Origin: a candidate division FCPU426 bacterium
GTDB taxonomy: Bacteria > Oederibacteriota > Muellerivitia > Muellerivitales > Muellerivitaceae
NCBI GenBank assembly: GCA_963796105.1
Contig: CAWCKJ010000008.1
Location: 32,001 to 96,000 of the forward strand
Length of the DNA stretch: 64,000 nt
Direction of reading: 5' to 3'
The position numbers were made by a program, and so were the translations under genes. Each line of letters begins with the position of its first letter. Within the stretch, counting starts at the first letter, position 1. Below, one piece after another: positions 1,225 to 50,697 of this stretch. The notes beneath the pieces are model-generated. The model ran no database searches. It was not told where the DNA came from and saw only the letters and a list, made by a program, of their open reading frames with translations.

Positions 1225-3420
1225 TTATCCGTTGTCGCCAACACCCCACCAACGTGTCAAACGAGGGAATGTTTTGCGCATAATGTAATACTCGTTAAAG
1301 GGGGTGTCATCCGTAAGGAAAATCCGTTTATTCGGGTTAGGCATATTGTAATAATCCCCATCCTTGAAAACCGACGCGGCATAATTCTCGATACTCATGC
1401 CGGCCGGAGCCCACTCCATCATGTCAGCCTTGGCAGTAGGTGGCATTTTCGCGAGCATTTCATTCACCGGAAGTACATTAATAGGTTCCATCGAGGCCAC
1501 AAAATAGTGGCCGAAGAGATAACCTGTAGGAGGTGGAAAAATCTTAATATAGGGAAATGTTGTACAAATGGCGCGCGCAAAAGCATCATTGGTTGCAACA
1601 TCATCACCCAAATACCAAAACTGAAGAAGGCCACCTTTTTTCAAACGGCTTTTCACCGTCTCCAAGAACTCCTTGGTATGCAGAAGGCTTGAACCCGCAG
1701 CTTGCGGGGGAGGAGGGGGATCAAGGGTGATTAAATCGTATTTATCCTCGGTTCTTTTGAGGTATCTTCGACCGTCATCCACTACAATATTGGCATTGGG
1801 CCTTTTCAGTAGCGCTTCCGCGTCATCCCAGTAATACCCAAAGGCATCCCGGACGCTAGGAACTAGTTCTACCGCCGTTGTTGAAACGTTCCAACTCAGC
1901 AGTGAGCGGAAGGTCGTGCCCATCCCAAAACAAATGACCAACGCTTTTTCAGGCTTGTGATTCATTAGGCAAAAGGGCAAGTGGGCCATAAACTTGGTAA
2001 CGGCACAGAGAGAAGTAATGCCAACCCCATTCACCAATAAACCACGATTCATTCCCGATTCATACGAGATGACGGTCGCCGCATAATCCCTGCGAGTCAC
2101 ACCCTTCTGAATCGTCTCGTAACTTTCACTGTACCCAATTGATATGATCATCAACACTATGGCCAGGGCTTGCAACCCCAGTCTTGGGAATGTTATCGAT
2201 TTTAAATAGGTTAGTCCCAGGATGATAAATGGAGCCGCCAACACCACCAGCGCCATTTTTGCCCCCAGCCAAGGTAGAAGAATGTATGAAGCCAACAAAG
2301 GCCCCAAAATACAACCAATCACATTAACCGCATATGCTTTGCCAGCGCTTTTGGGATTCCCACCTGAAAGGTCGTCCACCAGTTTGGGCGTTAAGTAACC
2401 CAAAATCGCGCAAAAAGGCAAGATCGTCAACAGCACTCCCGGTATGGATTTGTTCAATCGCGGATCGCTTAAAACAACCGGGAAAAATGAGGAAACCGCC
2501 AAAAACGCAAGAAGGATTTGATTCGTGAAGCTTTTCCCGACAGCCAAACCTTTTCTGTAAACCATCGACCCCAACCATGTGGCCAGGAGATAGGTGAAGA
2601 GGATCGCCCCAAAAGAATAAACCTGGGTTTGAAGGATGGTAGTGAATGCCCTCGTCCAAATGACCTCCATCGCCATGGACAAGAAACCCGTCAAGAATAG
2701 AATGATTACCATGAAATAAGTCTCCGGCCTCCAGAGGGGCTGGGTTTCAGGAGCGGTTTCCGGTTTCTTTGCGGCTTTGGGAATAATTTGGGGAGGAGGG
2801 GCTTGTTTCCCTAATCCCAAACCAAGGTTGGCCACGATGAAATTCAAGACAGCCCCGACGGTGAGAGTGCCCGTAAAACCGAAAAGTTCAATCAGCGCTA
2901 TAACGGTGATAAAAGTTCCTGTCAGCGCGCCTAGGACATTGGCTAAATATAAAAAGCTAAAACTGGTGGTATGGGCTTGGGAGGTTTCCTTTACGTAAGC
3001 CATCATGAATGGAAAGGTGGCTCCCATACAAATACACCAGGGAAGGATGGATACTACAATGCAGACGGCCGAGGCTAAAAGGTAACTCCAGGAATCCATC
3101 TCCCCCAGTTTTAAAAGCGAAGTAGAACTAGCGTTAAAGAGAAAGGGAACCGCAAAAGCCCCCACACCAATGAGAAACTCAATGAGTGCATAGAGATAGA
3201 TGGGGGAAAGTTGATACTTTCGGGCAATCCGGGATACTAAAATCCCGGCAAACCAAGACCCCAATGCTAGTCCCAGCATAAAAACTGAGATGACCACCGA
3301 GAGTACGGGCGTATTGACGCCAAAAGACGCGAATGCAAGCCGGACCCACACAATTTGGTACAACAATCCGCAGAATCCAGAACAGAAAAACATGAAGAAA
3401 AGCGTCTTATTTTTAAACAT
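1225..3420 (-). CDS. Membrane-fused spermidine-synthase-like / class I SAM-fold protein, copy 1
   Basis: Polytopic N-terminus (FFCSGFCGLLYQIVWVR, GATFP, LYLANVLG) then ICFGMGTT, VELVP, DDGRRYL, YDLITLDPPPP, LTDDTPFNEY. Start set at ATG 3420 behind an AAAGGA RBS. Confidence 0.85.
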   Translation of the reverse strand: MFKNKTLFFMFFCSGFCGLLYQIVWVRLAFASFGVNTPVLSVVISVFMLGLALGSWFAGILVSRIARKYQLSPIYLYALIEFLIGVGAFAVPFLFNASSTSLLKLGEMDSWSYLLASAVCIVVSILPWCICMGATFPFMMAYVKETSQAHTTSFSFLYLANVLGALTGTFITVIALIELFGFTGTLTVGAVLNFIVANLGLGLGKQAPPPQIIPKAAKKPETAPETQPLWRPETYFMVIILFLTGFLSMAMEVIWTRAFTTILQTQVYSFGAILFTYLLATWLGSMVYRKGLAVGKSFTNQILLAFLAVSSFFPVVLSDPRLNKSIPGVLLTILPFCAILGYLTPKLVDDLSGGNPKSAGKAYAVNVIGCILGPLLASYILLPWLGAKMALVVLAAPFIILGLTYLKSITFPRLGLQALAIVLMIISIGYSESYETIQKGVTRRDYAATVISYESGMNRGLLVNGVGITSLCAVTKFMAHLPFCLMNHKPEKALVICFGMGTTFRSLLSWNVSTTAVELVPSVRDAFGYYWDDAEALLKRPNANIVVDDGRRYLKRTEDKYDLITLDPPPPPQAAGSSLLHTKEFLETVKSRLKKGGLLQFWYLGDDVATNDAFARAICTTFPYIKIFPPPTGYLFGHYFVASMEPINVLPVNEMLAKMPPTAKADMMEWAPAGMSIENYAASVFKDGDYYNMPNPNKRIFLTDDTPFNEYYIMRKTFPRLTRWWGVGDNG

Positions 3421-3560
3421 GCAAAGTCCTTTCTTGCTATAGCCTATTGGCATCTCTAGGTTTTGAATTCTCGACGAAAAGTACCAAAGGGTTGCTGCCT
3501 GTTCTACGAATAAAAAATCCTTAATATATTACCCTAAATTTCCTTTCTGAATGGAAGAAA
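1225..3560. repeat. 2.3-kb direct repeat, copy 1 (pairs with 7837..10172)
   Basis: Constant offset of 6612 nt; appears identical over 2082..3560, including 140 nt upstream of the gene; diverged over 1513..2081 and near the stop codon. Confidence 0.95.
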
Positions 3561-7836: not shown

Positions 7837-10032
7837 TTATCCGTTGTCGCCAACACCCCACCACCGAGTAAAATGGGGAAATGTGTGCCGCATAATGTAA
7901 TACTCGTTAAAGGGGGTGTCATCCGTAAGGAAAATCCGTTTATTCGGGTTAGGCATATTGTAATAATCCCCATCCTTGAAAACCGACGCGGCATAATTCT
8001 CGATACTCATGCCGGCCGGAGCCCACTCCATCATGTCAGCCTTGGCAGTAGGTGGCATTTTCGCGAGCATTTCATTCACCGGAAGTACATTAATAGGTTC
8101 CATCGAGGCCACAAAATAGTGGCCATAAGGACCAGGAGGAGGAGCTGCGAAAATCTTAATGTACGGAAAAGTCATGCAGATAGCTCGTGCAAAAGCGTCA
8201 TTGGTTGCAACATCAGAGCCCAAATACCAAAACTGGAGGATTCCGCCTTTTTTCAAACGGCTTTTCACCGTCTCCAAGAACTCCTTGGAGTGCAATAAGC
8301 TAGAACCCGCTGTTTCCGGGGGAGGAGGGGGATCAATCGTAATCAAGTCGTATTGTTCCTCGGTTCTTTTGAGGTATCTTCGACCGTCATCGATGACAAT
8401 CTTGGCATTGGGCCTTTTCAATAACGCTTCTGCGTCGTCGCAATAATATCCAAAGGCATCCCGGACGCTAGGAACTAGTTCTACCGCCGTTGTGGAAATG
8501 TTCCAACTCAGCAGTGAGCGGAAGGTCGTGCCCATCCCAAAACAAATGACCAACGCTTTTTCAGGCTTGTGATTCATTAGGCATAAAGGCAAGTGGGCCA
8601 TGTATTTGGTAACGGGGGTCAAATTGGTAATTCCAACTCCGTTTACCAACAATCCCCGGCTCATACCCGACTCATACGATATGACGGTCGCCACATAATC
8701 CCTGCGAGTCACACCCTTCTGAATCGTCTCGTAACTTTCACTGTACCCAATTGATATGATCATCAACACTATGGCCAGGGCTTGCAACCCCAGTCTTGGG
8801 AATGTTATCGATTTTAAATAGGTTAGTCCCAGGATGATAAATGGAGCCGCCAACACCACCAGCGCCATTTTTGCCCCCAGCCAAGGTAGAAGAATGTATG
8901 AAGCCAACAAAGGCCCCAAAATACAACCAATCACATTAACCGCATATGCTTTGCCAGCGCTTTTGGGATTCCCACCTGAAAGGTCGTCCACCAGTTTGGG
9001 CGTTAAGTAACCCAAAATCGCGCAAAAAGGCAAGATCGTCAACAGCACTCCCGGTATGGATTTGTTCAATCGCGGATCGCTTAAAACAACCGGGAAAAAT
9101 GAGGAAACCGCCAAAAACGCAAGAAGGATTTGATTCGTGAAGCTTTTCCCGACAGCCAAACCTTTTCTGTAAACCATCGACCCCAACCATGTGGCCAGGA
9201 GATAGGTGAAGAGGATCGCCCCAAAAGAATAAACCTGGGTTTGAAGGATGGTAGTGAATGCCCTCGTCCAAATGACCTCCATCGCCATGGACAAGAAACC
9301 CGTCAAGAATAGAATGATTACCATGAAATAAGTCTCCGGCCTCCAGAGGGGCTGGGTTTCAGGAGCGGTTTCCGGTTTCTTTGCGGCTTTGGGAATAATT
9401 TGGGGAGGAGGGGCTTGTTTCCCTAATCCCAAACCAAGGTTGGCCACGATGAAATTCAAGACAGCCCCGACGGTGAGAGTGCCCGTAAAACCGAAAAGTT
9501 CAATCAGCGCTATAACGGTGATAAAAGTTCCTGTCAGCGCGCCTAGGACATTGGCTAAATATAAAAAGCTAAAACTGGTGGTATGGGCTTGGGAGGTTTC
9601 CTTTACGTAAGCCATCATGAATGGAAAGGTGGCTCCCATACAAATACACCAGGGAAGGATGGATACTACAATGCAGACGGCCGAGGCTAAAAGGTAACTC
9701 CAGGAATCCATCTCCCCCAGTTTTAAAAGCGAAGTAGAACTAGCGTTAAAGAGAAAGGGAACCGCAAAAGCCCCCACACCAATGAGAAACTCAATGAGTG
9801 CATAGAGATAGATGGGGGAAAGTTGATACTTTCGGGCAATCCGGGATACTAAAATCCCGGCAAACCAAGACCCCAATGCTAGTCCCAGCATAAAAACTGA
9901 GATGACCACCGAGAGTACGGGCGTATTGACGCCAAAAGACGCGAATGCAAGCCGGACCCACACAATTTGGTACAACAATCCGCAGAATCCAGAACAGAAA
10001 AACATGAAGAAAAGCGTCTTATTTTTAAACAT
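7837..10032 (-). CDS. Membrane-fused spermidine-synthase-like / class I SAM-fold protein, copy 2
   Basis: Same length and motifs as copy 1; about 30 amino-acid differences by eye, all in the soluble domain. Confidence 0.85.
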   Translation of the reverse strand: MFKNKTLFFMFFCSGFCGLLYQIVWVRLAFASFGVNTPVLSVVISVFMLGLALGSWFAGILVSRIARKYQLSPIYLYALIEFLIGVGAFAVPFLFNASSTSLLKLGEMDSWSYLLASAVCIVVSILPWCICMGATFPFMMAYVKETSQAHTTSFSFLYLANVLGALTGTFITVIALIELFGFTGTLTVGAVLNFIVANLGLGLGKQAPPPQIIPKAAKKPETAPETQPLWRPETYFMVIILFLTGFLSMAMEVIWTRAFTTILQTQVYSFGAILFTYLLATWLGSMVYRKGLAVGKSFTNQILLAFLAVSSFFPVVLSDPRLNKSIPGVLLTILPFCAILGYLTPKLVDDLSGGNPKSAGKAYAVNVIGCILGPLLASYILLPWLGAKMALVVLAAPFIILGLTYLKSITFPRLGLQALAIVLMIISIGYSESYETIQKGVTRRDYVATVISYESGMSRGLLVNGVGITNLTPVTKYMAHLPLCLMNHKPEKALVICFGMGTTFRSLLSWNISTTAVELVPSVRDAFGYYCDDAEALLKRPNAKIVIDDGRRYLKRTEEQYDLITIDPPPPPETAGSSLLHSKEFLETVKSRLKKGGILQFWYLGSDVATNDAFARAICMTFPYIKIFAAPPPGPYGHYFVASMEPINVLPVNEMLAKMPPTAKADMMEWAPAGMSIENYAASVFKDGDYYNMPNPNKRIFLTDDTPFNEYYIMRHTFPHFTRWWGVGDNG

Positions 10033-10172
10033 GCAAAGTCCTTTCTTGCTATAGCCTATTGGCATCTCTAGGTTTTGAATTCTCGACGAAAAGTACCAAA
10101 GGGTTGCTGCCTGTTCTACGAATAAAAAATCCTTAATATATTACCCTAAATTTCCTTTCTGAATGGAAGAAA
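7837..10172. repeat. 2.3-kb direct repeat, copy 2
   Basis: Matches 1225..3560; identity stops abruptly after GAATGGAAGAAA at 10172. Confidence 0.95.
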
Positions 10173-40097: not shown

Positions 40098-40381
40098 AAA
40101 GATAAATAAAATCAGATTTTTTTAAAAAGCCGTTAAGCAAAACCCAATCTTTTGCCACGGATTCAGGGGATGCAGGGGATACACACAAATTAACAAAACT
40201 AATGATGAACGATGATAAATAGTTTTACGATCGGGTTATATGGTTTATGCTGACGGCCGATGGAAAAATTAATTTTTCCACGGTCCACAGGCAGGACCAT
40301 ATCGCCCGTAGGACGTAAATGAAAAGCTTTTGTCACGAATTAGTCTTGTTATATCCCATGAATCCCATGCATCCGTGGCTA
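40098..40381. repeat. Nested palindromic repeat R1
   Basis: Outer arms GCCACGGATTCAGGGGATGC (40154) and ATCCCATGCATCCGTGGC (to 40379); inner module 40239..40301 with the perfect palindrome TGGAAAAATTAATTTTTCCA; homologous to 44267..44605. Confidence 0.85.
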
Positions 40382-40425
40382 ATTATTCGTTTGAACATAG
40401 TTTGAAATTTAAGGATTTTTGAAAA

Positions 40426-42157: not shown

Positions 42158-42461
42158 ACCACAGGTTCCTTCGGAACCACAAAGGGCACTGTAAGGAAAG
42201 AAATTAATATTGACTCAACTTTGGCAAATTTTGAGGACGTTGATTCTTCCCCCTTTGAAAGAGGGGGATTGAGGGGAAGTTAGACTTGTTTTGGGATTTA
42301 GCAAAAACTAATACCCCCCTATCCAACAGCGCTCATAGGGAAAAACCCCTATGTTACCCACAAACCGAAATACCCCTTTTCAAAGGGGGGAATAGCTATC
42401 TAATGTTGAGTATTGAAATATATTAACTGTGTCTCTGTGTGGTGCGAAGCACCGCTGTGGT
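42158..42461. repeat. Nested repeat: ACCACAG/CTGTGGT arms enclosing a CCCCTTTGAAAGGGG-type inverted pair
   Basis: Right arm CTGTG.CTCTGTGTGGTGCGAAGCACC.CTGTGGT recurs at 44646..44680; left arm recurs at 44171 and 44381; inner IR 42247..42270 / 42373..42392. Confidence 0.8.
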
Positions 42462-42492
42462 GAATAAGAATTTTTTCAGGTTCGAGGAACCA

Positions 42493-43593: not shown

Positions 43594-44149
43594 CCCCTTG
43601 GAATCCTTCCTCTACTCCCTCGATGTTTCGGTTTTCCGCTGGATCAACGCTGGCTGGTCCTGCCCCATCCTGGATTCATTTTTCGCGTTCATCACCGACA
43701 TGCGGCATTTTTATATCATCCTGATTCCTTGGGCGGTTTATCTTCTGATCTGGGGAAAAGCCAAGGGCCGCTGGTTGGTTTTAAGCCTGGCGGTAGCCAT
43801 ACTTCTTTCCGACCAGGGTTCCAGCCACTTCATCAAGTTCCTGGTGAAAAGGATCAGGCCTTGTAACGCCCTGCCGGGAGTCCTGACCCCCGCCGGGACC
43901 AGCTCGGCTTTCTCCTTTCCTTCCAGCCACGCTTCCAACATGGGGTCCGCTGGAATTTTATTATCCATGGCTTTCAAACCCTGGACCTGGTTGTTTGTCC
44001 TTATCGCCCTCCTCGTGGGCCTTTCCAGGATTTATTTGGGGCTCCATTATCCCTCGGATGTCCTGGGGGGGTATGTTTTTGGAATCCTGGTGGGTTTCTT
44101 GGTCAGGTGGGGAATCAACAAGTTGAAGATGAAGCTGGGAAAAGAATAA
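43568..44149 (+). CDS. PAP2 phosphatase (undecaprenyl-PP phosphatase-like)
   Basis: KFLVKRIRP, SFPSSH, SRIYLGLHYPSDV. Confidence 0.92.
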   Translation: MKIRPNRSDPLESFLYSLDVSVFRWINAGWSCPILDSFFAFITDMRHFYIILIPWAVYLLIWGKAKGRWLVLSLAVAILLSDQGSSHFIKFLVKRIRPCNALPGVLTPAGTSSAFSFPSSHASNMGSAGILLSMAFKPWTWLFVLIALLVGLSRIYLGLHYPSDVLGGYVFGILVGFLVRWGINKLKMKLGKE

Positions 44150-44170
44150 GAACTTCTAAAAAAAGGCTTT

Positions 44171-44680
44171 CACCACAGGCTGCCTTTGGCAGCGCACAGA
44201 GGCACAGCATTAATACCTTATAATACTAGGATCATAGACCTCCGAATTAAATAAAATCCAGTTTGTAAAGATAAGTAAAATCAGGATTCTAAAAGACGTT
44301 AAACAAAACCAAGTCTTTTGCCACGGATTCAGGGGATGCAGGGGGATAGCTACAAACAGATTCAACATAAACTACATTACACCACAGGTTTCTTTGAAAC
44401 CACAGTGTACACGGTTACAAAGCTAACAACTAAATTGGGGAATTAGCTTCAGATCATGACAAGGGCTAAGCCCTTGCGCCCGATGGGCGTTATGGTCAAG
44501 CCTGCGGACCGTGGAAAAATTAATTTTTCCATCGACCGTCAGTTGGACCATAGACCATGATCAAAATGCGTTTTAAATCCCATGAATCCCATGCATCTGT
44601 GGCTAGAGTCTATTTTGGAAAGATTTGTATTAGGATATTTCTTTACTGTGACTCTGTGTGGTGCGAAGCACCACTGTGGT
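44171..44680. repeat. Multiply nested palindromic repeat R2
   Basis: ACCACAG-type arms outside, GCCACGGAT-type arms 44320..44604 inside, inner module 44491..44552 matching the reverse complement of the R1 inner module. Confidence 0.85.
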
Positions 44681-44712
44681 TGAGTGAAGTTTTTTAAATT
44701 AAGGATTTAATT

Positions 44713-45627
44713 ATGCCTTCAAAAGATAACGAAAAAAACGCGGTTCAGCCTTCCACCCTTTATCTGGTAGGCACTCCCATCGGTAACTTGGAGGACATGA
44801 CCTTCCGGGCCCTGAAAACCCTCAAGGAAGTATCCCTTGTCGCGGCGGAAGATACCCGCAATAGCCTGAGGCTCATGACCCACTTCGGGATCAAACCCAA
44901 GAAGCTTATTTCCTGTTTTGAGCATAATGAGACGAAGCGGGTGGATGAGATTTTGAAGACCTTGGGGGAAGGGGGTTCGGTGGCCCTCGTGACGGACGCG
45001 GGAATGCCGGGAATCTCCGACCCGGGTTATTTGGTGGTGAAAGCCGTGTTGGGAAAGGGTTTTAGCGTCGTGCCAGTTCCAGGGGCATCGGCTCTTTTAG
45101 CGCTTTTGCCCGCTTCCGGTTTCCAGGCTTCTCCCTTCACTTTTATCGGGTTTTTACCTTCCAAGCCTGCTGAGCGTATGACGGCCCTGACCCAGATTCG
45201 TTCCGAGGAAAGAACACTCGTCTTTTTCGAGTCGCCCCACCGTTTGAGGGAAAGCCTGAAGGACATGATGAATGTTTTTGGCAACCGCCAAGCGGTCGTG
45301 GGAAGGGAACTCACCAAACTGCATGAGGAATTCATCCGGGGAACGCTTCAGGAACTTTGGAAGCATTTCAAGGCCAAGGCCCCAATAGGGGAATTTACCG
45401 TGGTTGTGGAGGGTGGTGAACGGATCGACCATTCCGACCAGGAAAAATGGGTGGGGGTTTCCATTGAGGACCAGCTCATCCAGTTTATGAACGAGGGGCA
45501 TTCCAAAACTGAGGCCGTCAAGGCCGTCTGCCGTATGCGCGATTTGCCCCGCGAGGTGGTTTATAAGATCGCAACGGAGATCAAATGGGAAGGGAAGGAA
45601 GAGCAACAGCCGGAAGCGCAAGAATGA
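44713..45627 (+). CDS. rsmI: 16S rRNA C1402 2'-O-methyltransferase
   Basis: LYLVGTPIGNLED, AEDTR, DAGMPGISDPG, FESPHRL, RELTKLHEE. Confidence 0.97.
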   Translation: MPSKDNEKNAVQPSTLYLVGTPIGNLEDMTFRALKTLKEVSLVAAEDTRNSLRLMTHFGIKPKKLISCFEHNETKRVDEILKTLGEGGSVALVTDAGMPGISDPGYLVVKAVLGKGFSVVPVPGASALLALLPASGFQASPFTFIGFLPSKPAERMTALTQIRSEERTLVFFESPHRLRESLKDMMNVFGNRQAVVGRELTKLHEEFIRGTLQELWKHFKAKAPIGEFTVVVEGGERIDHSDQEKWVGVSIEDQLIQFMNEGHSKTEAVKAVCRMRDLPREVVYKIATEIKWEGKEEQQPEAQE

Positions 45628-45741
45628 CTCGTCGGAAGGATTAGATTGGTATGAAAGAAAACCAAAATATCGAATGGAAAACATCATGGCGGGACGAGTT
45701 CCTGAAATGGATATGCGGTTTCGCCAACGCCGATGGCGGGA
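45481..45741 (+). repeat. rsmI 3'-end repeat, copy A (rsmI tail + start of next gene)
   Basis: Matches 47088..47348 (offset 1607) and, over the rsmI part, 48568..48689. Confidence 0.95.
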
Positions 45742-47063
45742 GGCTGATTATCGGCCGTGATGATCATGGCCGCGTCACCGGTGTTGAGGACGTTGAGAAA
45801 CTCCTGGTGGATATTCCCAACAAGGTTCGCGACATCATGGGCATCATGGTGATGGTGAACCACCGCAAAAAAGCCGGGAAAGATTATTTGGAAATCGTAG
45901 TGGAACCCCACCTCTATCCTGTGAATTACAAGGGTGAATACTTCACTCGGAGTGGGAGTACCCTTCAAACTCTAAAGGGTGCGGCATTGGACCGTTTTCT
46001 TCTCCGAAAGCAAGGGAAGCATTGGGATGCAATACCGGTGGTTCACGCCTGGGTTGGGGATTTGGCCCGCGTAACGATCAACGAATTCCGAAAACGCGCC
46101 CGCGAGAGCCGGCGCCTGGAACCGGCAATACTCAAGGAACCGGCGCAAGGCCTTATCGAAAAACTACACCTTCTGGATGGAAAACATCTCAAGAAGGCGG
46201 CTGTGCTGTTGTTCCACCCCGATCCGGAGAATTTCGTCACCGGAGCCTTCGTTAAAATCGGTTTTTTCCGCACCAACGACGATCTTCTTTACCATGACGA
46301 GATTCACGGTGACCTTTTCAGCCAGGTGGACAAGACCCTGGAACTGCTTACAACCAAATACTTAAAGGCAGGCATCAGCTATCGGGGCGTGCAGAGGGTG
46401 GAGACGCTGCCCGTACCCGATGCCGCCTTAAGGGAGGCGGTCCTCAACGCGGTTATCCACAAGGACTACGCGAGCGGCACTCCCATCCAGATCAGCGTTT
46501 ATGACGACAAGCTGATGATTTGGAATCCCGGCGAACTGCCCCCCGCTTGGACGGTAGCGAAACTCAAAAGTAAGCATTCTTCCAAGCCTTTCAACCCCGA
46601 TGTGGCCAACGCCTTTTTTCGGGCGGGAATGATCGAGGCCTGGGGCCGGGGCATCGAACGCATTTTGGGTGCCTGCCGGGACGCTGGGTTCAGTGAGCCC
46701 CGGTTCGAATATGAGCATACCGGCCTTTGGGTGGAATTCCGGTTCTCCAAGGAAATCGTTAAAAAGAGTTTCGAACACCAGCCAGGGTTGGGGCTAGAGT
46801 CGAGGCTAGAGTCGAGGCTAGAGTCGAGGCTAGAGTCGTTGGAACAACGCGCGCTTAAGGCATTGTGGAAAAATCCTTTGGGCAAAGGTGCCCTTGCGAA
46901 GGTATTGGGACAGAAACAGGCTTCAGGCGGACTTCATAACGCTATTCGGCGGCTTTTGGAAAAACATTTTATTGAGCGCACCATTCCCGGCAAGCCCAAC
47001 AGCCGTTTGCAGGAATACCGCGTCACTGAAGAAGGAAAGACCTATTTGTCATCGAAAAGCTAA
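45651..47063 (+). CDS. Schlafen/AlbA_2 + HATPase_c_4 + C-terminal HTH protein
   Basis: ENQNIEWK..ICGFANADGG, LREAVLNAVIHKDY, IWNPG, NPDVANAF, IEAWGRG, PNSRLQEY. Confidence 0.85.
   Translation: MKENQNIEWKTSWRDEFLKWICGFANADGGRLIIGRDDHGRVTGVEDVEKLLVDIPNKVRDIMGIMVMVNHRKKAGKDYLEIVVEPHLYPVNYKGEYFTRSGSTLQTLKGAALDRFLLRKQGKHWDAIPVVHAWVGDLARVTINEFRKRARESRRLEPAILKEPAQGLIEKLHLLDGKHLKKAAVLLFHPDPENFVTGAFVKIGFFRTNDDLLYHDEIHGDLFSQVDKTLELLTTKYLKAGISYRGVQRVETLPVPDAALREAVLNAVIHKDYASGTPIQISVYDDKLMIWNPGELPPAWTVAKLKSKHSSKPFNPDVANAFFRAGMIEAWGRGIERILGACRDAGFSEPRFEYEHTGLWVEFRFSKEIVKKSFEHQPGLGLESRLESRLESRLESLEQRALKALWKNPLGKGALAKVLGQKQASGGLHNAIRRLLEKHFIERTIPGKPNSRLQEYRVTEEGKTYLSSKS
46792..46838 (+). repeat. 12-bp in-frame tandem repeat, ~3.9 copies
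   Basis: (GGCTAGAGTCGA)n encoding LESR repeats. Confidence 0.95.
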
Positions 47064-47348
47064 GATGTTGGTTAGTGGACGCTGGTGCAGTTTATGAACG
47101 AGGGGCATTCCAAGACCGAGGCCGTCAAGGCTGTCTGCCGAATGCGCGGCTTGCCCCGCGAGGTGGTCTATAAGATCGCGACAGAGATTAAGTGGGAAGG
47201 GAAGGAAGAGCAACAGCCGGAAGCGCAAGAATGACTCGTCGGAAGGATTAGATTGGTATGAAAGAAAACCAAAATATCGAATGGAAAACATCATGGCGGG
47301 ACGAGTTCCTGAAATGGATATGCGGTTTCGCCAACGCCGATGGCGGGA
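47055..47348 (+). repeat. rsmI 3'-end repeat, copy B (mosaic)
   Basis: 5' part nearly identical to copy C, 3' part identical to copy A; switch within TGGGAAGGGAAGGAAGA. Confidence 0.95.
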
Positions 47349-47392
47349 AGCTTTTGATCGAATTGATGCTGAGCGGGAGTGGAACAGTATGA
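47258..47392 (+). pseudogene. 44-codon N-terminal fragment of the AlbA_2 gene
   Basis: MKENQNIEWKTSWRDEFLKWICGFANADGGKLLIELMLSGSGTV*; stop overlaps the next ATG. Confidence 0.75.
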
Positions 47393-48447
47393 GGAAAACG
47401 CGGAAAAATATTTTGAAAAATAACCAGCTTGCCGACGGGTACAAGACTTTGCTTGCGGAGGTGAAAAAGCGTGTTCGGGACGCCCAATACCAAGCCCTCA
47501 AGGCCGTCAACAAGGAATTAATCGGTCTTTATTGGGACATCGGTCAAATGATCCATGAACGCCAGAAAGGGAAGACTTGGGGTAAAGCCGTCGTCCCCCG
47601 GTTGGCGTCGGATCTTCAAAAGGAATTCCCCGGAATCAGCGGTTTTTCTTCCCAGAATTTATGGCGCATGCGGCAGTTTTACGAAACCTACCGGTTAAAG
47701 CCAAAACTCTCACCATTGGTGAGAGAAATTGGTTGGACGCACAATGTCATCATAATGATGCATTGCAAGGACGCGTTGGAGTGTGAGTTTTATATCCGCA
47801 TGACCCGAAAATACGGGTGGTCCAAGAACGTCCTGGCTTTGAAGATTGACGCAAAAACATACGAAAGCACCCTTTTGAATCAAACGAACTTCAATAAAAC
47901 CCTACCTGAGAAAATCCGGAACCAAGCTAAGCTGGCCGTGAAGGACGAATACACCTTCGATTTCCTGGAATTGGGGGAAGAACACGCTGAGCGTGAATTG
48001 GAGGCGGCGATCTTATCGAAAGTTGAAAAGTTCCTGGCCGAGATGGGCGGTAAATTCGCTTTTATGGGGAGTCAGTACCGGCTGGAAGTCGGGGAAAAAG
48101 AATATTTCATCGACTTGCTTCTTTACCACCGGGGCCTTAAATGCCTGGTGGCTTTGGAATTGAAAGTGGGCGAGTTCAAGCCCGAGTACGTTGGGAAGAT
48201 GCAGTTTTACCTGGCGGCCCTGGATGGTAAAACGCGTATTAAGGGGGAAAACCCTTCCATTGGCATGATCCTTTGCAGGACTAAGGACAGGGCCATCGTG
48301 GAATACGCTCTCAAGGAAAGCAGGAAGCCCATAGGGGTCGCTGCCTACCGCATAGTCCACAAACTACCGAAAAATCTGGCCGGCCATCTGCCCGATCCTG
48401 CCCAGGTCGAGAAAATGCTCATGAAGATAGACGATGGGGGCGGGTGA
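47389..48447 (+). CDS. YhcG/DUF1016 PD-(D/E)XK nuclease-family protein
   Basis: VNKELIGLYWDIG, GFSSQNLWRMRQFY, KDEYTFDFL, IDLLLYH, ELK, GKMQFYL. The ORF-track extension to 47281 is an alternative frame of the repeat. Confidence 0.9.
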   Translation: MRKTRKNILKNNQLADGYKTLLAEVKKRVRDAQYQALKAVNKELIGLYWDIGQMIHERQKGKTWGKAVVPRLASDLQKEFPGISGFSSQNLWRMRQFYETYRLKPKLSPLVREIGWTHNVIIMMHCKDALECEFYIRMTRKYGWSKNVLALKIDAKTYESTLLNQTNFNKTLPEKIRNQAKLAVKDEYTFDFLELGEEHAERELEAAILSKVEKFLAEMGGKFAFMGSQYRLEVGEKEYFIDLLLYHRGLKCLVALELKVGEFKPEYVGKMQFYLAALDGKTRIKGENPSIGMILCRTKDRAIVEYALKESRKPIGVAAYRIVHKLPKNLAGHLPDPAQVEKMLMKIDDGGG

Positions 48448-48534
48448 TTCCGTGAAACAGCGAGAGATGTTTTCGCAAGGGGAATAGTCAAAACCCATCG
48501 ACCCTTCGATAAACTCTGAACCATAAAGCTCTTT

Positions 48535-48711
48535 AAAAGCTAAGATATCGTTTAGTGGATGCTGGTCCAGTTCATAAAAGAGGGGCATTCCAAGACCGAG
48601 GCCGTCAAGGCTGTCTGCCGAATGCGCGGCTTGCCCCGCGAGGTGGTCTATAAGATCGCGACAGAGATTAAGTGGGAAGGGAAGGAAGAAAACCAGGCAG
48701 ACGTGGATTAG
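48535..48711 (+). pseudogene. rsmI 3'-end repeat, copy C (orphan C-terminus with its own tail and stop)
   Basis: Reads QFIKEGHSKTEAVKAVCRMRGLPREVVYKIATEIKWEGKEENQADVD*. Confidence 0.9.
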
Positions 48712-48842
48712 CAGGCTGCTGAAAAAGTAAAAAATAGGCCCACAAAGCAGCCTGCGACCCCAAAGATTCCGCAGGAATCGTAGGGTTTCCAAAAATGTCA
48801 TCAGCTGAAAAAGTCCGTTTTGGGGACTTTTTTAGCAACCTG
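48712..48842. mobile_element. 131-bp MITE with TTAG target duplication
   Basis: IRs CAGGCTGCTGAAAAAGT / ACTTTTTTAGCAACCTG; TTAG at 48708-48711 and 48843-48846. Confidence 0.8.
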
Positions 48843-48927
48843 TTAGGGCCAAGCCTTGAAAATGACGCAAGTGATGAAAAAAGATTTGAAGAAAAAACTG
48901 TGATGCCGATTTCAAGACCTGACCTTT

Positions 48928-49273
48928 GTGTCTGTTAAAGGGAAAATTAGGGGGAAGCATCACCATGAGGCGCACAGGGAACAACAGAAATTGGGCTTGC
49001 CGGATGCCGAGGAAACGCTGAAAAAGATCGGGAAAATGCATGGGATTATGGTGAAAGATATGGTGGTTCCGACCCGGCGGAAAAACGAAGGGCGGGAAGC
49101 GGCGGTATGGGCCTTGCGTCAGATATGCCGATTAAGTTTAGGGGAAGTGGCAAAGAAGATGGGGGTAAAATACTCTGCGGTAAGCCATGGGGTGGCAAGG
49201 ATGAAGAAACGCATTCGTGAGGAAAAGGGTCTTGAGGAAAAGATTCGTAATGCCGTTTTCAAGACCTGACCCT
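48928..49273 (+). pseudogene. C-terminal HTH remnant of a probable RAYT/IS200-like transposase
   Basis: REAAVWALRQICRLSLGEVAKKMGVKYSAVSHGV HTH; TTCAAGACCTGACC at the ORF end and again at ~48911-48924; no HUH domain visible. Confidence 0.55.
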
Positions 49274-49274
49274 A

Positions 49275-49514
49275 ATGTTTTACGACCCATCCGGCATTGA
49301 ATCCAGGATGGCCTCGAATGTGGAATTCCGGAAGGAGTGCAGGAAGGCGGGCCTTTGGACCGCGGCAGACCTGCAGAAGCTCATGGTTTTCAATGACATC
49401 GAGGGGAAGCACATGGCGGAAAAGGAAACCGCGCCCTTGAATACCGACGACCTGCCGGTGATCGAGTACCGTTTCCGCGAGTTCAACCACGATGTGTTTT
49501 TAAGCAAACTTTGA
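49275..49514 (+). pseudogene. C-terminal fragment of another spermidine-synthase-like gene
   Basis: APLNTDDLPVIEY resembles LTDDTPFNEY of the two full copies. Confidence 0.5.
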
Positions 49515-49524
49515 GGTTCTAAGA

Positions 49525-50697
49525 GTGAAAGAAACAAAGCACCTTCATAGTTTTTGGCTCATTTCGCTTTTGGTTCCGCCGGTCCTGCTGGCGGCGTACG
49601 GATGCGGAACGGTTCAGCGGAAAACCGAAGCGCCAGCGCCGCTTCCCACGCCCCCAACCGTGACCTTTTCATTCGTGGGGGACGTGCTCCTGGATCATTG
49701 GCCGATCTCGAGAATTTATGAGGGTCTCCGGGAGAAAAACGGATGGGAGGGGGTTTATTCCTATCCCTTCGCGAAGGTCAAACCTTGTTTTGAGGGGATC
49801 GTGTTTTGCAACCTCGAGGGGCCCTTGACGGACCGGGGACCCAGGAGGTTCGCGGACAAGAACGAAAAGTCCTATTTCTCGGTGGATTCCCGTTTCGCCG
49901 AAAGCCTGAAAAAAGGGGGCGTCAACGTCGTGTCGCTTTCCAACAACCACATCAAGGACTGCGGGGAGGAAGGTGTCCTGGACAGTATCCGCAACGTGAC
50001 CGCCGCTGGAATCGCGCCGGTGGGGGCTGGAGCCAACGCCAAGGAAGCCCGCAAACCGGTCATGCTGGAACAAAACGGGTTGAAAATAGCCTTTCTCTCC
50101 TACGATCTAGTCAAACCCAAAAGCGTATGGGCCGGTGGGAAAACCCCCGGCGCGGCCCACGCGGACGCGGCGGGGGTGGCGTCCGATGTCGCGGCAGCCC
50201 GCAAAACCGCCGACCTTGTCGTGGTGAATTTCCATTGGGGGATCGAGTACCGGTCCGACTGGATCGCGGCTCCCCCCAGCGAGGACCGCGTCAAGATAGC
50301 CCACGCCGCCATTGACGCTGGGGCGCAGATCGTGGTGGGGGAGCATTCCCATACCGTTGAGAAAATCGAGACCTACAAGCACGGCTTGATCGCCTATGGG
50401 TTGGGGAACTTCGTTTTCGCGGCGGCCACGCGCGAGGGCCACCCGGTAAGCATGATCCTGAAGGTGCGGGCTGGCACCAAGGGCGTGGTTTCCTGCCAGG
50501 CGGTTCCAGTCCTGATTTCACCGCGTAAAACCCGCTACCAGCCTGTCCCGCTGGAGGGGAAAGATCTGGAGGAATTCGCCGGAAAACTGGGAATGATTTC
50601 CGGGATCAAAACCACCGTCAAGACAAACCTTCAACAACAAGATTCGGCCGCATCCACTCAAACGCCCTCGGCTTTCTTGGAAAAAAATCCGGAATAA
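49525..50697 (+). CDS. CapA (PGA_cap) metallophosphoesterase-fold protein, probable lipoprotein
   Basis: VGDVLL, NLEGP, LSNNH, HWGIEY, HSH, YGLGNFVF. Confidence 0.88.
   Translation: MKETKHLHSFWLISLLVPPVLLAAYGCGTVQRKTEAPAPLPTPPTVTFSFVGDVLLDHWPISRIYEGLREKNGWEGVYSYPFAKVKPCFEGIVFCNLEGPLTDRGPRRFADKNEKSYFSVDSRFAESLKKGGVNVVSLSNNHIKDCGEEGVLDSIRNVTAAGIAPVGAGANAKEARKPVMLEQNGLKIAFLSYDLVKPKSVWAGGKTPGAAHADAAGVASDVAAARKTADLVVVNFHWGIEYRSDWIAAPPSEDRVKIAHAAIDAGAQIVVGEHSHTVEKIETYKHGLIAYGLGNFVFAAATREGHPVSMILKVRAGTKGVVSCQAVPVLISPRKTRYQPVPLEGKDLEEFAGKLGMISGIKTTVKTNLQQQDSAASTQTPSAFLEKNPE

Follow-up and report, generated by a model that had tools for sequence, protein, structure and literature searches.

Orphan rsmI 3′ ends bracketing acquired genes in a candidate division FCPU426 bacterium, a probable integrase-free stack

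The stretch of DNA analyzed here, referred to as the window, comprises 64,000 nucleotides (nt) of a candidate division FCPU426 bacterium (contig CAWCKJ010000008.1, G000:C8:32001-96000 in our numbering, where G000 is the source genome), and coordinates are window positions unless another contig or locus is named. The source genome of 4.98 Mb is assembled in 16 contigs, the largest of 1.6 Mb, with 0.3% contamination. On the forward strand, the window carries rsmI (44713..45627), encoding the 16S rRNA cytidine-1402 2'-O-methyltransferase, followed by two orphan copies of its own 3' end with other genes between the copies. The gene is intact at 304 amino acids, scores 245 bits against the TIGR00096 profile (cut-off 168) and encodes a protein 91% identical to its counterpart in G001, the sole genome of the same genus. 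This bears out an earlier note, made from the sequence alone, which held that rsmI is restored to full length at this locus. The note had also reported the end of rsmI three times, and the three direct copies were found to start at 45479, 47088 and 48568, with spacings of 1607 and 1480 nt; they are 124-155 nt long and occur at no other place in the genome. All on the forward strand, they are tail A (45479..45627), the working 3' end of rsmI; tail B (47088..47234), which is of C type up to 47192 and of A type from 47210; and tail C (48568..48711), an orphan tail with the native rsmI end.

The genes between the tails, here called cargo, lie on the same strand. Cargo 1 (45651..47063) encodes a protein of 470 amino acids with SLFN_AlbA_2, HATPase_c_4 and Fic-like_C Pfam domains, and cargo 2 (47389..48447) encodes a YhcG/DUF1016 protein of the PD-(D/E)XK nuclease family, with DUF1016_N and YhcG_C domains and a match to the PADLOC candidate PDC-S02. 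Cargo 2 is 352 amino acids long from its likely start, which was picked by inference at 47389, the longest open reading frame (ORF) starting at 47281. One cargo gene between each pair of tails, as first described, is correct for the AlbA_2/HATPase gene between A and B, but the B-C interval is not one clean cassette gene because an AlbA stub (47258..47392, forward) precedes YhcG. The first ~100 nt of the stub (47258-47360) repeat the start of cargo 1 and are followed by unrelated DNA; the stub frame has 44 codons, and its stop overlaps the likely YhcG start. Because the beginning of the AlbA gene is repeated after tail B, the A/B repeat totals ~280 nt rather than 150.

A 33-nt junction, J, which does not derive from rsmI, stands in two related versions just before tails B and C. 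J1 (47055..47087, forward) overlaps the AlbA stop and J2 lies at 48535..48567 on the same strand. J contains a short inverted repeat, and a search of the genome returned 2 exact sites and 2 sites at two mismatches, with 13 in the backwards control. J was also considered as decayed rsmI, which was rejected as comparison with the corresponding part of rsmI in 33 relatives gave no significant alignment (best p ~0.1). The gap between rsmI and cargo 1 is 23 nt and contains no terminator-like site, so the proposed transcription of cargo from rsmI is plausible at this locus; it does not hold as a rule, since cargo is antisense at several other loci of the genome that carry orphan tails.

A defence role of the cargo may be suggested by family membership alone. 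Schlafen-type defence has been reported for other protein fusions, and a literature search found no tested function for the AlbA-ATPase or YhcG proteins of the locus. The nearest relatives of the cargo share 64-75% protein identity and 73% DNA identity. The genome G006 holds a gene 73% identical to cargo 1 placed between two large genes, which we take to be restriction-modification subunits from their appearance. Within cargo 1, a 12-nt tandem repeat encoding ESRL units (46781-46840) lies in the linker before the C-terminal HTH of the AlbA protein, and AlbA homologues have other repeat units at this linker position.

The state before insertion is visible in G001, which has a single rsmI with a C-type end and the same flank as behind tail C. 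Tail C matches the G001 gene at 88% identity over 150 nt, through the stop, and the ancestral flank (48843..48925, forward), which lies directly 3' of rsmI in G001, is 79% identical over 84 nt and found at a single place there; 1.07 kb of the G001 contig remains downstream of this empty site. The segment 45479-48567 is therefore an insertion and C the native end. The insert of 3.1 kb holds no mobility gene, as judged by Pfam analysis of its ORFs and by integrase searches. The extreme end of tail A is likely imported, since its last codons differ from the G001 end. An out-of-frame stretch across the A stop (45623..45649, forward) reads ...EGLD, resembling the RsmI C-terminus of other genera of the family, and RsmI ends in EGLD, EGMD, EGLN or RGLD in 14 of 33 relatives; this stretch is likely a remnant of the donor allele. 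Tail C is separated from the ancestral flank by a multi-copy miniature inverted-repeat element (48712..48842, no strand assigned) with a 4-nt target duplication at the C stop. The element is a later insertion and not part of the array mechanism. It occurs at 13 places of at least 100 nt in the source genome, itself included, and at many in G001, where it is absent from the corresponding site.

Comparison of the tails upheld two further statements of the earlier note. Across the shared block, A differs from B and C by 11 substitutions in 10 codons, of which nine are synonymous and one is a D/G change, in agreement with the mostly silent differences described. Tail B is indeed a mosaic of C and A, and its switch falls in a 17-nt block identical in all three tails; a crossover of A with C within the final 17 nt that they have in common would give this junction. 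Exact shared blocks measure 110 nt for B/C and 156 nt for A/B, and tail C has two private non-synonymous changes adjoining J2.

The tail-cargo scar is not special to rsmI, as about 15 genes of the source genome carry it. K-mer and segment scans with the last 200 nt of 2736 ORFs of at least 200 amino acids found orphan tails downstream in 17 cases and upstream in 2. Mid-gene control segments gave 4 downstream and 1 upstream, gene heads gave 8 upstream and 4 downstream, and paralog controls gave 10-16 in every class. Five of the six orphan classes include one tandem-repeat pseudo-ORF, without which the tail counts are 16 and 1 (p = 1e-4). The bias was weaker among genes of at least 100 amino acids, a set of mechanical ORFs of which many are spurious (tails 25 downstream and 7 upstream, heads 20 upstream and 6 downstream, mid-gene segments 6 and 6). 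The pseudo-ORF (C2:366179), an Rhs-like locus, umuC, a weak match (C3:662790) and recR/guaA self-matches were dropped, and two shorter genes were added, to reach the final count of about 15.

Toxin-antitoxin or nuclease genes lie between the copies at 9 of the 13 annotated loci. Besides AlbA-ATPase and YhcG behind rsmI, the cargo consists of HicAB behind a GH44 gene, RHH-PIN behind a flavin reductase gene, HigBA with a lipoprotein-like gene behind tatD, AAA_14-DUF4143 behind a GH42 gene, PIN behind an ABC ATPase gene (within its operon), HicA behind a quinone-reductase-like gene, and HicA with two nucleotidyltransferases and HEPN behind a periplasmic binding protein gene. A PMT/TPR membrane gene has three tail copies, with HTH and then BrnTA as cargo. 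G001 has a clear empty site for recG, as have G016, G002 and G019 for the ABC operon. The duplicated lengths before the stop range from about 57 to 451 nt, and no common junction motif was apparent by eye.

To place the differences between the copies on branches, codon changes were polarized over 10 loci with G001 as outgroup, replaced by G002 for the ABC gene. Codon changes on the gene-side branch number 37 synonymous and 6 non-synonymous, and those on the orphan branch 24 and 9, with 19 codons not polarized; the unpolarized total is likewise rich in synonymous changes (70 of 95). The orphan branch is thus 73% synonymous (24/33), compared to 26% expected for a decaying copy (p = 2e-8), which indicates that the orphans gained most of their differences while still coding, so that both copies represent working alleles. 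This supports the origin of the tails from functional alleles put forward in the earlier note. Some loci are nearly identical between copies, as at tatD (99%).

Among relatives, the same architecture appears at other genes. In G023, a gene is followed by a RelE/HTH pair, a tail, an addiction-module pair and a shorter tail. The ortholog in G013, a member of the G023 genus, has its tail in triplicate and different cargo, namely a LysM protein and a PIN module, so that cargo differs at one orthologous site. In G002, the tail of a pseudouridine synthase gene is present three times, and the cargo comprises a PIN_3 gene and HicAB. Triple arrays are found in two genera other than the source genus. 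In G001 (L252, 3363-14397), a GH67 tail and a 2.9-kb antisense gene of 880 amino acids occur threefold at ~90% identity, a unit of tail and non-defence cargo that was amplified in tandem or built up by accretion. The PIN/HicA loci of relatives have a flanking direct repeat in 8 of 41 cases, two of which are the triples mentioned above. Two further arrangements were seen in the same genomes. A mirror case in G023 (L245, 9166-12022) has two orphan copies of the first 99 nt of a methyltransferase gene upstream of that gene, and in G002, 4 kb from the triple (L322, 3264-4298), the end of a fatty-acid desaturase gene is followed by an RHH-MazF pair and a second copy of that end (114 nt, 87%).

Homologues of cargo 1 were found at 80 loci, 51 with enough flanking sequence and 8 of these with a flanking direct repeat. 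At three of them, from other phyla (L160, L223 and L224), the repeat is the tail of the upstream gene; the Ignavibacteriota locus L224 is a triple, and an N6-methylase fragment sits at the joint of L223. A reading of the L224 stubs as pieces of hsdS and hsdR was not confirmed by NCBIfam. The term cassettes used in the earlier note does not fit, because broken gene ends rather than defined boundaries were found at the joints here and in the homologous loci. The cargo resembles fragments broken out of restriction-modification regions. Exchange of cargo in the gene tail, which the note had proposed, is seen in relatives at other genes but not at rsmI itself, where the variation beyond the array is the empty state of G001.

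The claim that the locus is integrase-free, including a check for a nearby integrase, also stood. The source genome has 36 matches to PF00589, none within 121 kb of rsmI, and 2 matches to the large serine recombinase, both on other contigs. Of the 15 orphan-tail loci, 11 lie on a contig that carries a PF00589 match, and none of these 11 has such a match within 78 kb. J has no further copy in 77 of 78 loci searched for a reused att arm, the one match being its own locus, and gave one chance-level match in viral contigs. No plasmid carrying the unit was found, 0 of 28 records covering 80% of it. As separate observations, contigs C1, C13, C14, C15 and C16 (55-103 kb) are rich in tyrosine recombinases, several arranged as trios at contig starts, and C1 and C16 start with the same trio.

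We consider it probable, at roughly 0.7, that the intact rsmI with two orphan tails and foreign genes between them arose by one rare insertion with duplication of the tail, followed by homologous recombination, without an integrase. Foreign DNA would have joined behind rsmI through homology with the gene on one side and an illegitimate joint, J, on the other, displacing the old tail C downstream. Cargo bracketed by tails could then loop out, or cross over unequally between A and C, to give a product with J, a C-type start and an A-type end, which is the structure of B, and re-entry would add a unit to the stack. The joint at the stub is seen directly, and one AlbA body was presumably replaced there by YhcG, leaving the stub. 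Because both arms lie within a conserved gene, such a unit could enter the counterpart of that gene in a related cell regardless of the downstream DNA, and the mixing of two working alleles would account for the silent differences between tails. The cargo would likely be kept through addiction, which resists its loss, or through phage defence. As a whole, the interpretation in the earlier note is partly supported.

Several observations weigh against this reading. A second rsmI tail in direct orientation and longer than 28 nt was present at 0 of 35 loci of relatives, with 1.1-18.7 kb of sequence covered downstream of the gene, and exchange at rsmI itself is therefore deduced from one genome (39 loci from relatives were examined, several from the same organisms, 1 without rsmI and 3 without its 3' end). 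No donor of the cargo was found, the closest matches being those of 64-75% protein and 73% DNA identity. J1 and J2 with the first tail codons differ at 8 of 45 nt and are followed by 110 identical nt (p = 3e-5), which calls for either gene conversion or a second donor in addition. The outgroup is distant, at 73-89% identity, such that some polarizations are wrong and single calls uncertain. A minority of toxin modules carries the scar, at 3 of 10 HicA genes and 0 of 17 PIN genes listed of 23, while random genes gave 2 of 150, one an insertion sequence (IS) pair. Finally, comEC and dprA are present in the source genome, but as comEC is also present in 10 and dprA in 11 of 14 control genomes, this does not demonstrate competence.

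Integrons stack small toxin-antitoxin and defence genes, as is seen at the rsmI locus. However, no integron integrase is near, with no PF00589 match within 121 kb; the repeats are rsmI coding sequence, no attC array is present (no attC model was run) and the cargo ends are broken genes. Unlike integrative elements, the unit has no cognate integrase in or beside it and no att core reused elsewhere. Closer parallels come from four papers, each consulted through part of its text, to which the following comparisons refer. Furuta, Abe and Kobayashi (2010, PMC2853133) described restriction-modification genes inserted, mostly in competent species, with target duplications of 24-423 nt and no mobility gene. 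The repeats were often imperfect (83/96, 195/208) and often lay across a start or stop while the gene stayed whole; insertion into operon-like structures, an empty site in a relative and amplification via the repeats were reported. The array shares a duplication longer than 30 bp in low copy (here 124-155 nt in three copies), an insert below 20 kb without a mobility gene (here 3.1 kb, the miniature element and a RAYT fragment lying outside, after C) and an empty site in a relative, G001. It differs from the screening criterion of that study in having AlbA-ATPase and YhcG genes, no methyltransferase and no restriction-modification pair. Further differences are the toxin-antitoxin pairs among the cargo of the source genome, the presence of about 15 sites in one genome and the triple stacks, and the two copies are shown as two working alleles, a point absent from the part of that paper considered here. 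Release and re-infection of units flanked by long repeats was stated there to lack experimental support.

The array also resembles the rhs loci of Jackson et al. (2009, PMC2935791), where arrays of orphan 3' ends of variable length are explained by a circle formed through recombination between repeats and re-inserted by a single crossover, displacing the old tip downstream. Orphan 3' ends are likewise stacked behind an intact gene here, and B is the junction that model predicts. In contrast, the host is a housekeeping gene rather than a polymorphic toxin whose tips vary and that comes with immunity genes; tail function is unchanged, and the novelty lies in cargo between the tails, not in the tip. 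Kirchberger et al. (2017, PMC5361080) reported that type VI secretion system (T6SS) effector-immunity modules are displaced one after another by homology-facilitated illegitimate recombination, the arrays afterwards moving by ordinary recombination. One homologous anchor with one illegitimate joint and integron-like stacking without an integrase are shared, whereas the old effector is deleted there and the target tail duplicated here. In the WHO elements of Coughlan et al. (2020, PMC7282813), each integration replaces the 3' end of FBA1 and clusters build up behind the gene, but a dedicated allele-specific endonuclease acts there on one gene, compared to many genes and unrelated cargo here. 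No paper on toxin-antitoxin genes in a tail-duplication arrangement without an integrase was found, in a search that did not cover subscription papers or the supplements of Furuta's study.

As an integrase-free stack, the rsmI array has good support; it is a variant of mechanisms already described, and the underlying principle is itself published. How small toxin-antitoxin and defence genes spread without a recombinase of their own is a standing question, to which the locus adds a predicted junction, B, kept in the chromosome, and the genome about 15 parallel cases in which the two-allele signature is clear, so that the model of loop-out and re-entry becomes testable. Short 'pseudogene' tails behind housekeeping genes may also serve to flag acquired defence-type cargo. 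A broader proposal, in which duplicated tails of conserved genes form a recombinase-free capture platform across the family and tail-cargo circles, once looped out, move from one species to another by DNA uptake to re-enter the same gene, is tentative and rather doubtful; if true, toxin-antitoxin and defence modules would stack and swap like integron cassettes through RecA alone.

The tails could alternatively be scars of the attL/attR type from integrative elements that target the 3' end of rsmI and bring a tail to replace it, with J as an attP arm and the integrase lost or supplied in trans. Tandem integration of integrative elements also gives an attP-like middle junction, J is kept before both B and C with its short inverted repeat, and the genome has the 36 PF00589 and 2 large serine recombinase matches. 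We nevertheless regard this as unlikely given the 121-kb distance to the nearest PF00589 match, the confinement of J to this locus, the lack of a plasmid with the unit, and the spread over about 15 unrelated target genes with variable repeat length and no common core. It is also quite unlikely that both copies came from the chromosome itself by local duplication at a break, the orphans then decaying slowly with no foreign allele involved. Such duplication is the original reading of long target duplications and would suit the nearly identical loci such as tatD and the private non-synonymous changes of C beside J2, but the 73% synonymous changes on the orphan branch contradict decay, and the A end differs wholesale from the native end and bears the EGLD-like remnant. 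Homing, in which the cargo nuclease would cut cargo-free rsmI alleles and spread by gene conversion as WHO elements do at FBA1 in yeast (PMC7282813), appears improbable despite the identical architecture of WHO clusters. YhcG does bear a PD-(D/E)XK domain, and silent differences could shield the replaced tail. Yet at the other loci, RNase-type toxin-antitoxin pairs or a lipoprotein make up most of the cargo, no gene tails bracket the two YhcG genes of family members, and any flanking repeat occurs at just 8 of the 47 YhcG/AlbA loci of the phylum.

Misassembly, with strain variants strung together through the repeats, was weighed because the source is metagenome-like and exact repeats of 110 and 156 nt are present. 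Reads from one public run, which contained 7% of the words, gave scattered short contig pieces, none bridging the junctions, which counts in favor of an artifact; three of the pieces showed no differences (151, 151 and 115 nt), and no RNA run containing the sequence was listed. This explanation is nonetheless very improbable, considering the 16 contigs of up to 1.6 Mb, the 0.3% contamination and the same architecture in four other family genomes. The B junction has 17 nt in common with both parents, and its 31-mer is unique and exists in neither, so it must stem from real molecules. Capture of cargo by a RAYT/REP-type transposase that writes the duplication is highly improbable. It is suggested by a RAYT 3' fragment and terminal motif 130-570 nt after C; however, none of the 17 orphan junctions had the terminal motif, at up to 2 mismatches, in any of three search ranges, and multi-copy repeats occur at 2 of 17 upstream orphan junctions compared to 359 of 2736 ordinary gene ends. 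Insertion with tail duplication followed by homologous recombination remains the preferred reading.

The RAYT-type fragment (48935-49279, 345 nt) matches, at 97-98% identity, the ends of 5 further copies of an element with Y1_Tnp and a DnaA-like HTH, and its RAYT label is partly our assumption. It is followed by an orphan 3' piece (49275-49514) of a gene with no full copy in the source genome. A similar remnant precedes capA in G001, where capA does not adjoin rsmI, placing a rearrangement break between 48925 and 49275. The capA-like gene itself (49525-50697) encodes 390 amino acids here compared to 802 in G001 (L060, 16229-18637), where a Thr/Pro stalk and a repeat domain are joined to it. 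Elsewhere in the window, 1225-3453 and 7837-10065 encode near-identical membrane-protein paralogs of 742 amino acids, the last 288 nt being 97% identical, with a low-GC gene of 824 amino acids and a transposase-like ORF between them. Upstream of rsmI, the intergenic segments 40099-40400, 42158-42476 and 44100-44700 belong to multi-copy palindromic repeat families with up to ~50 matches per 50 nt genome-wide.

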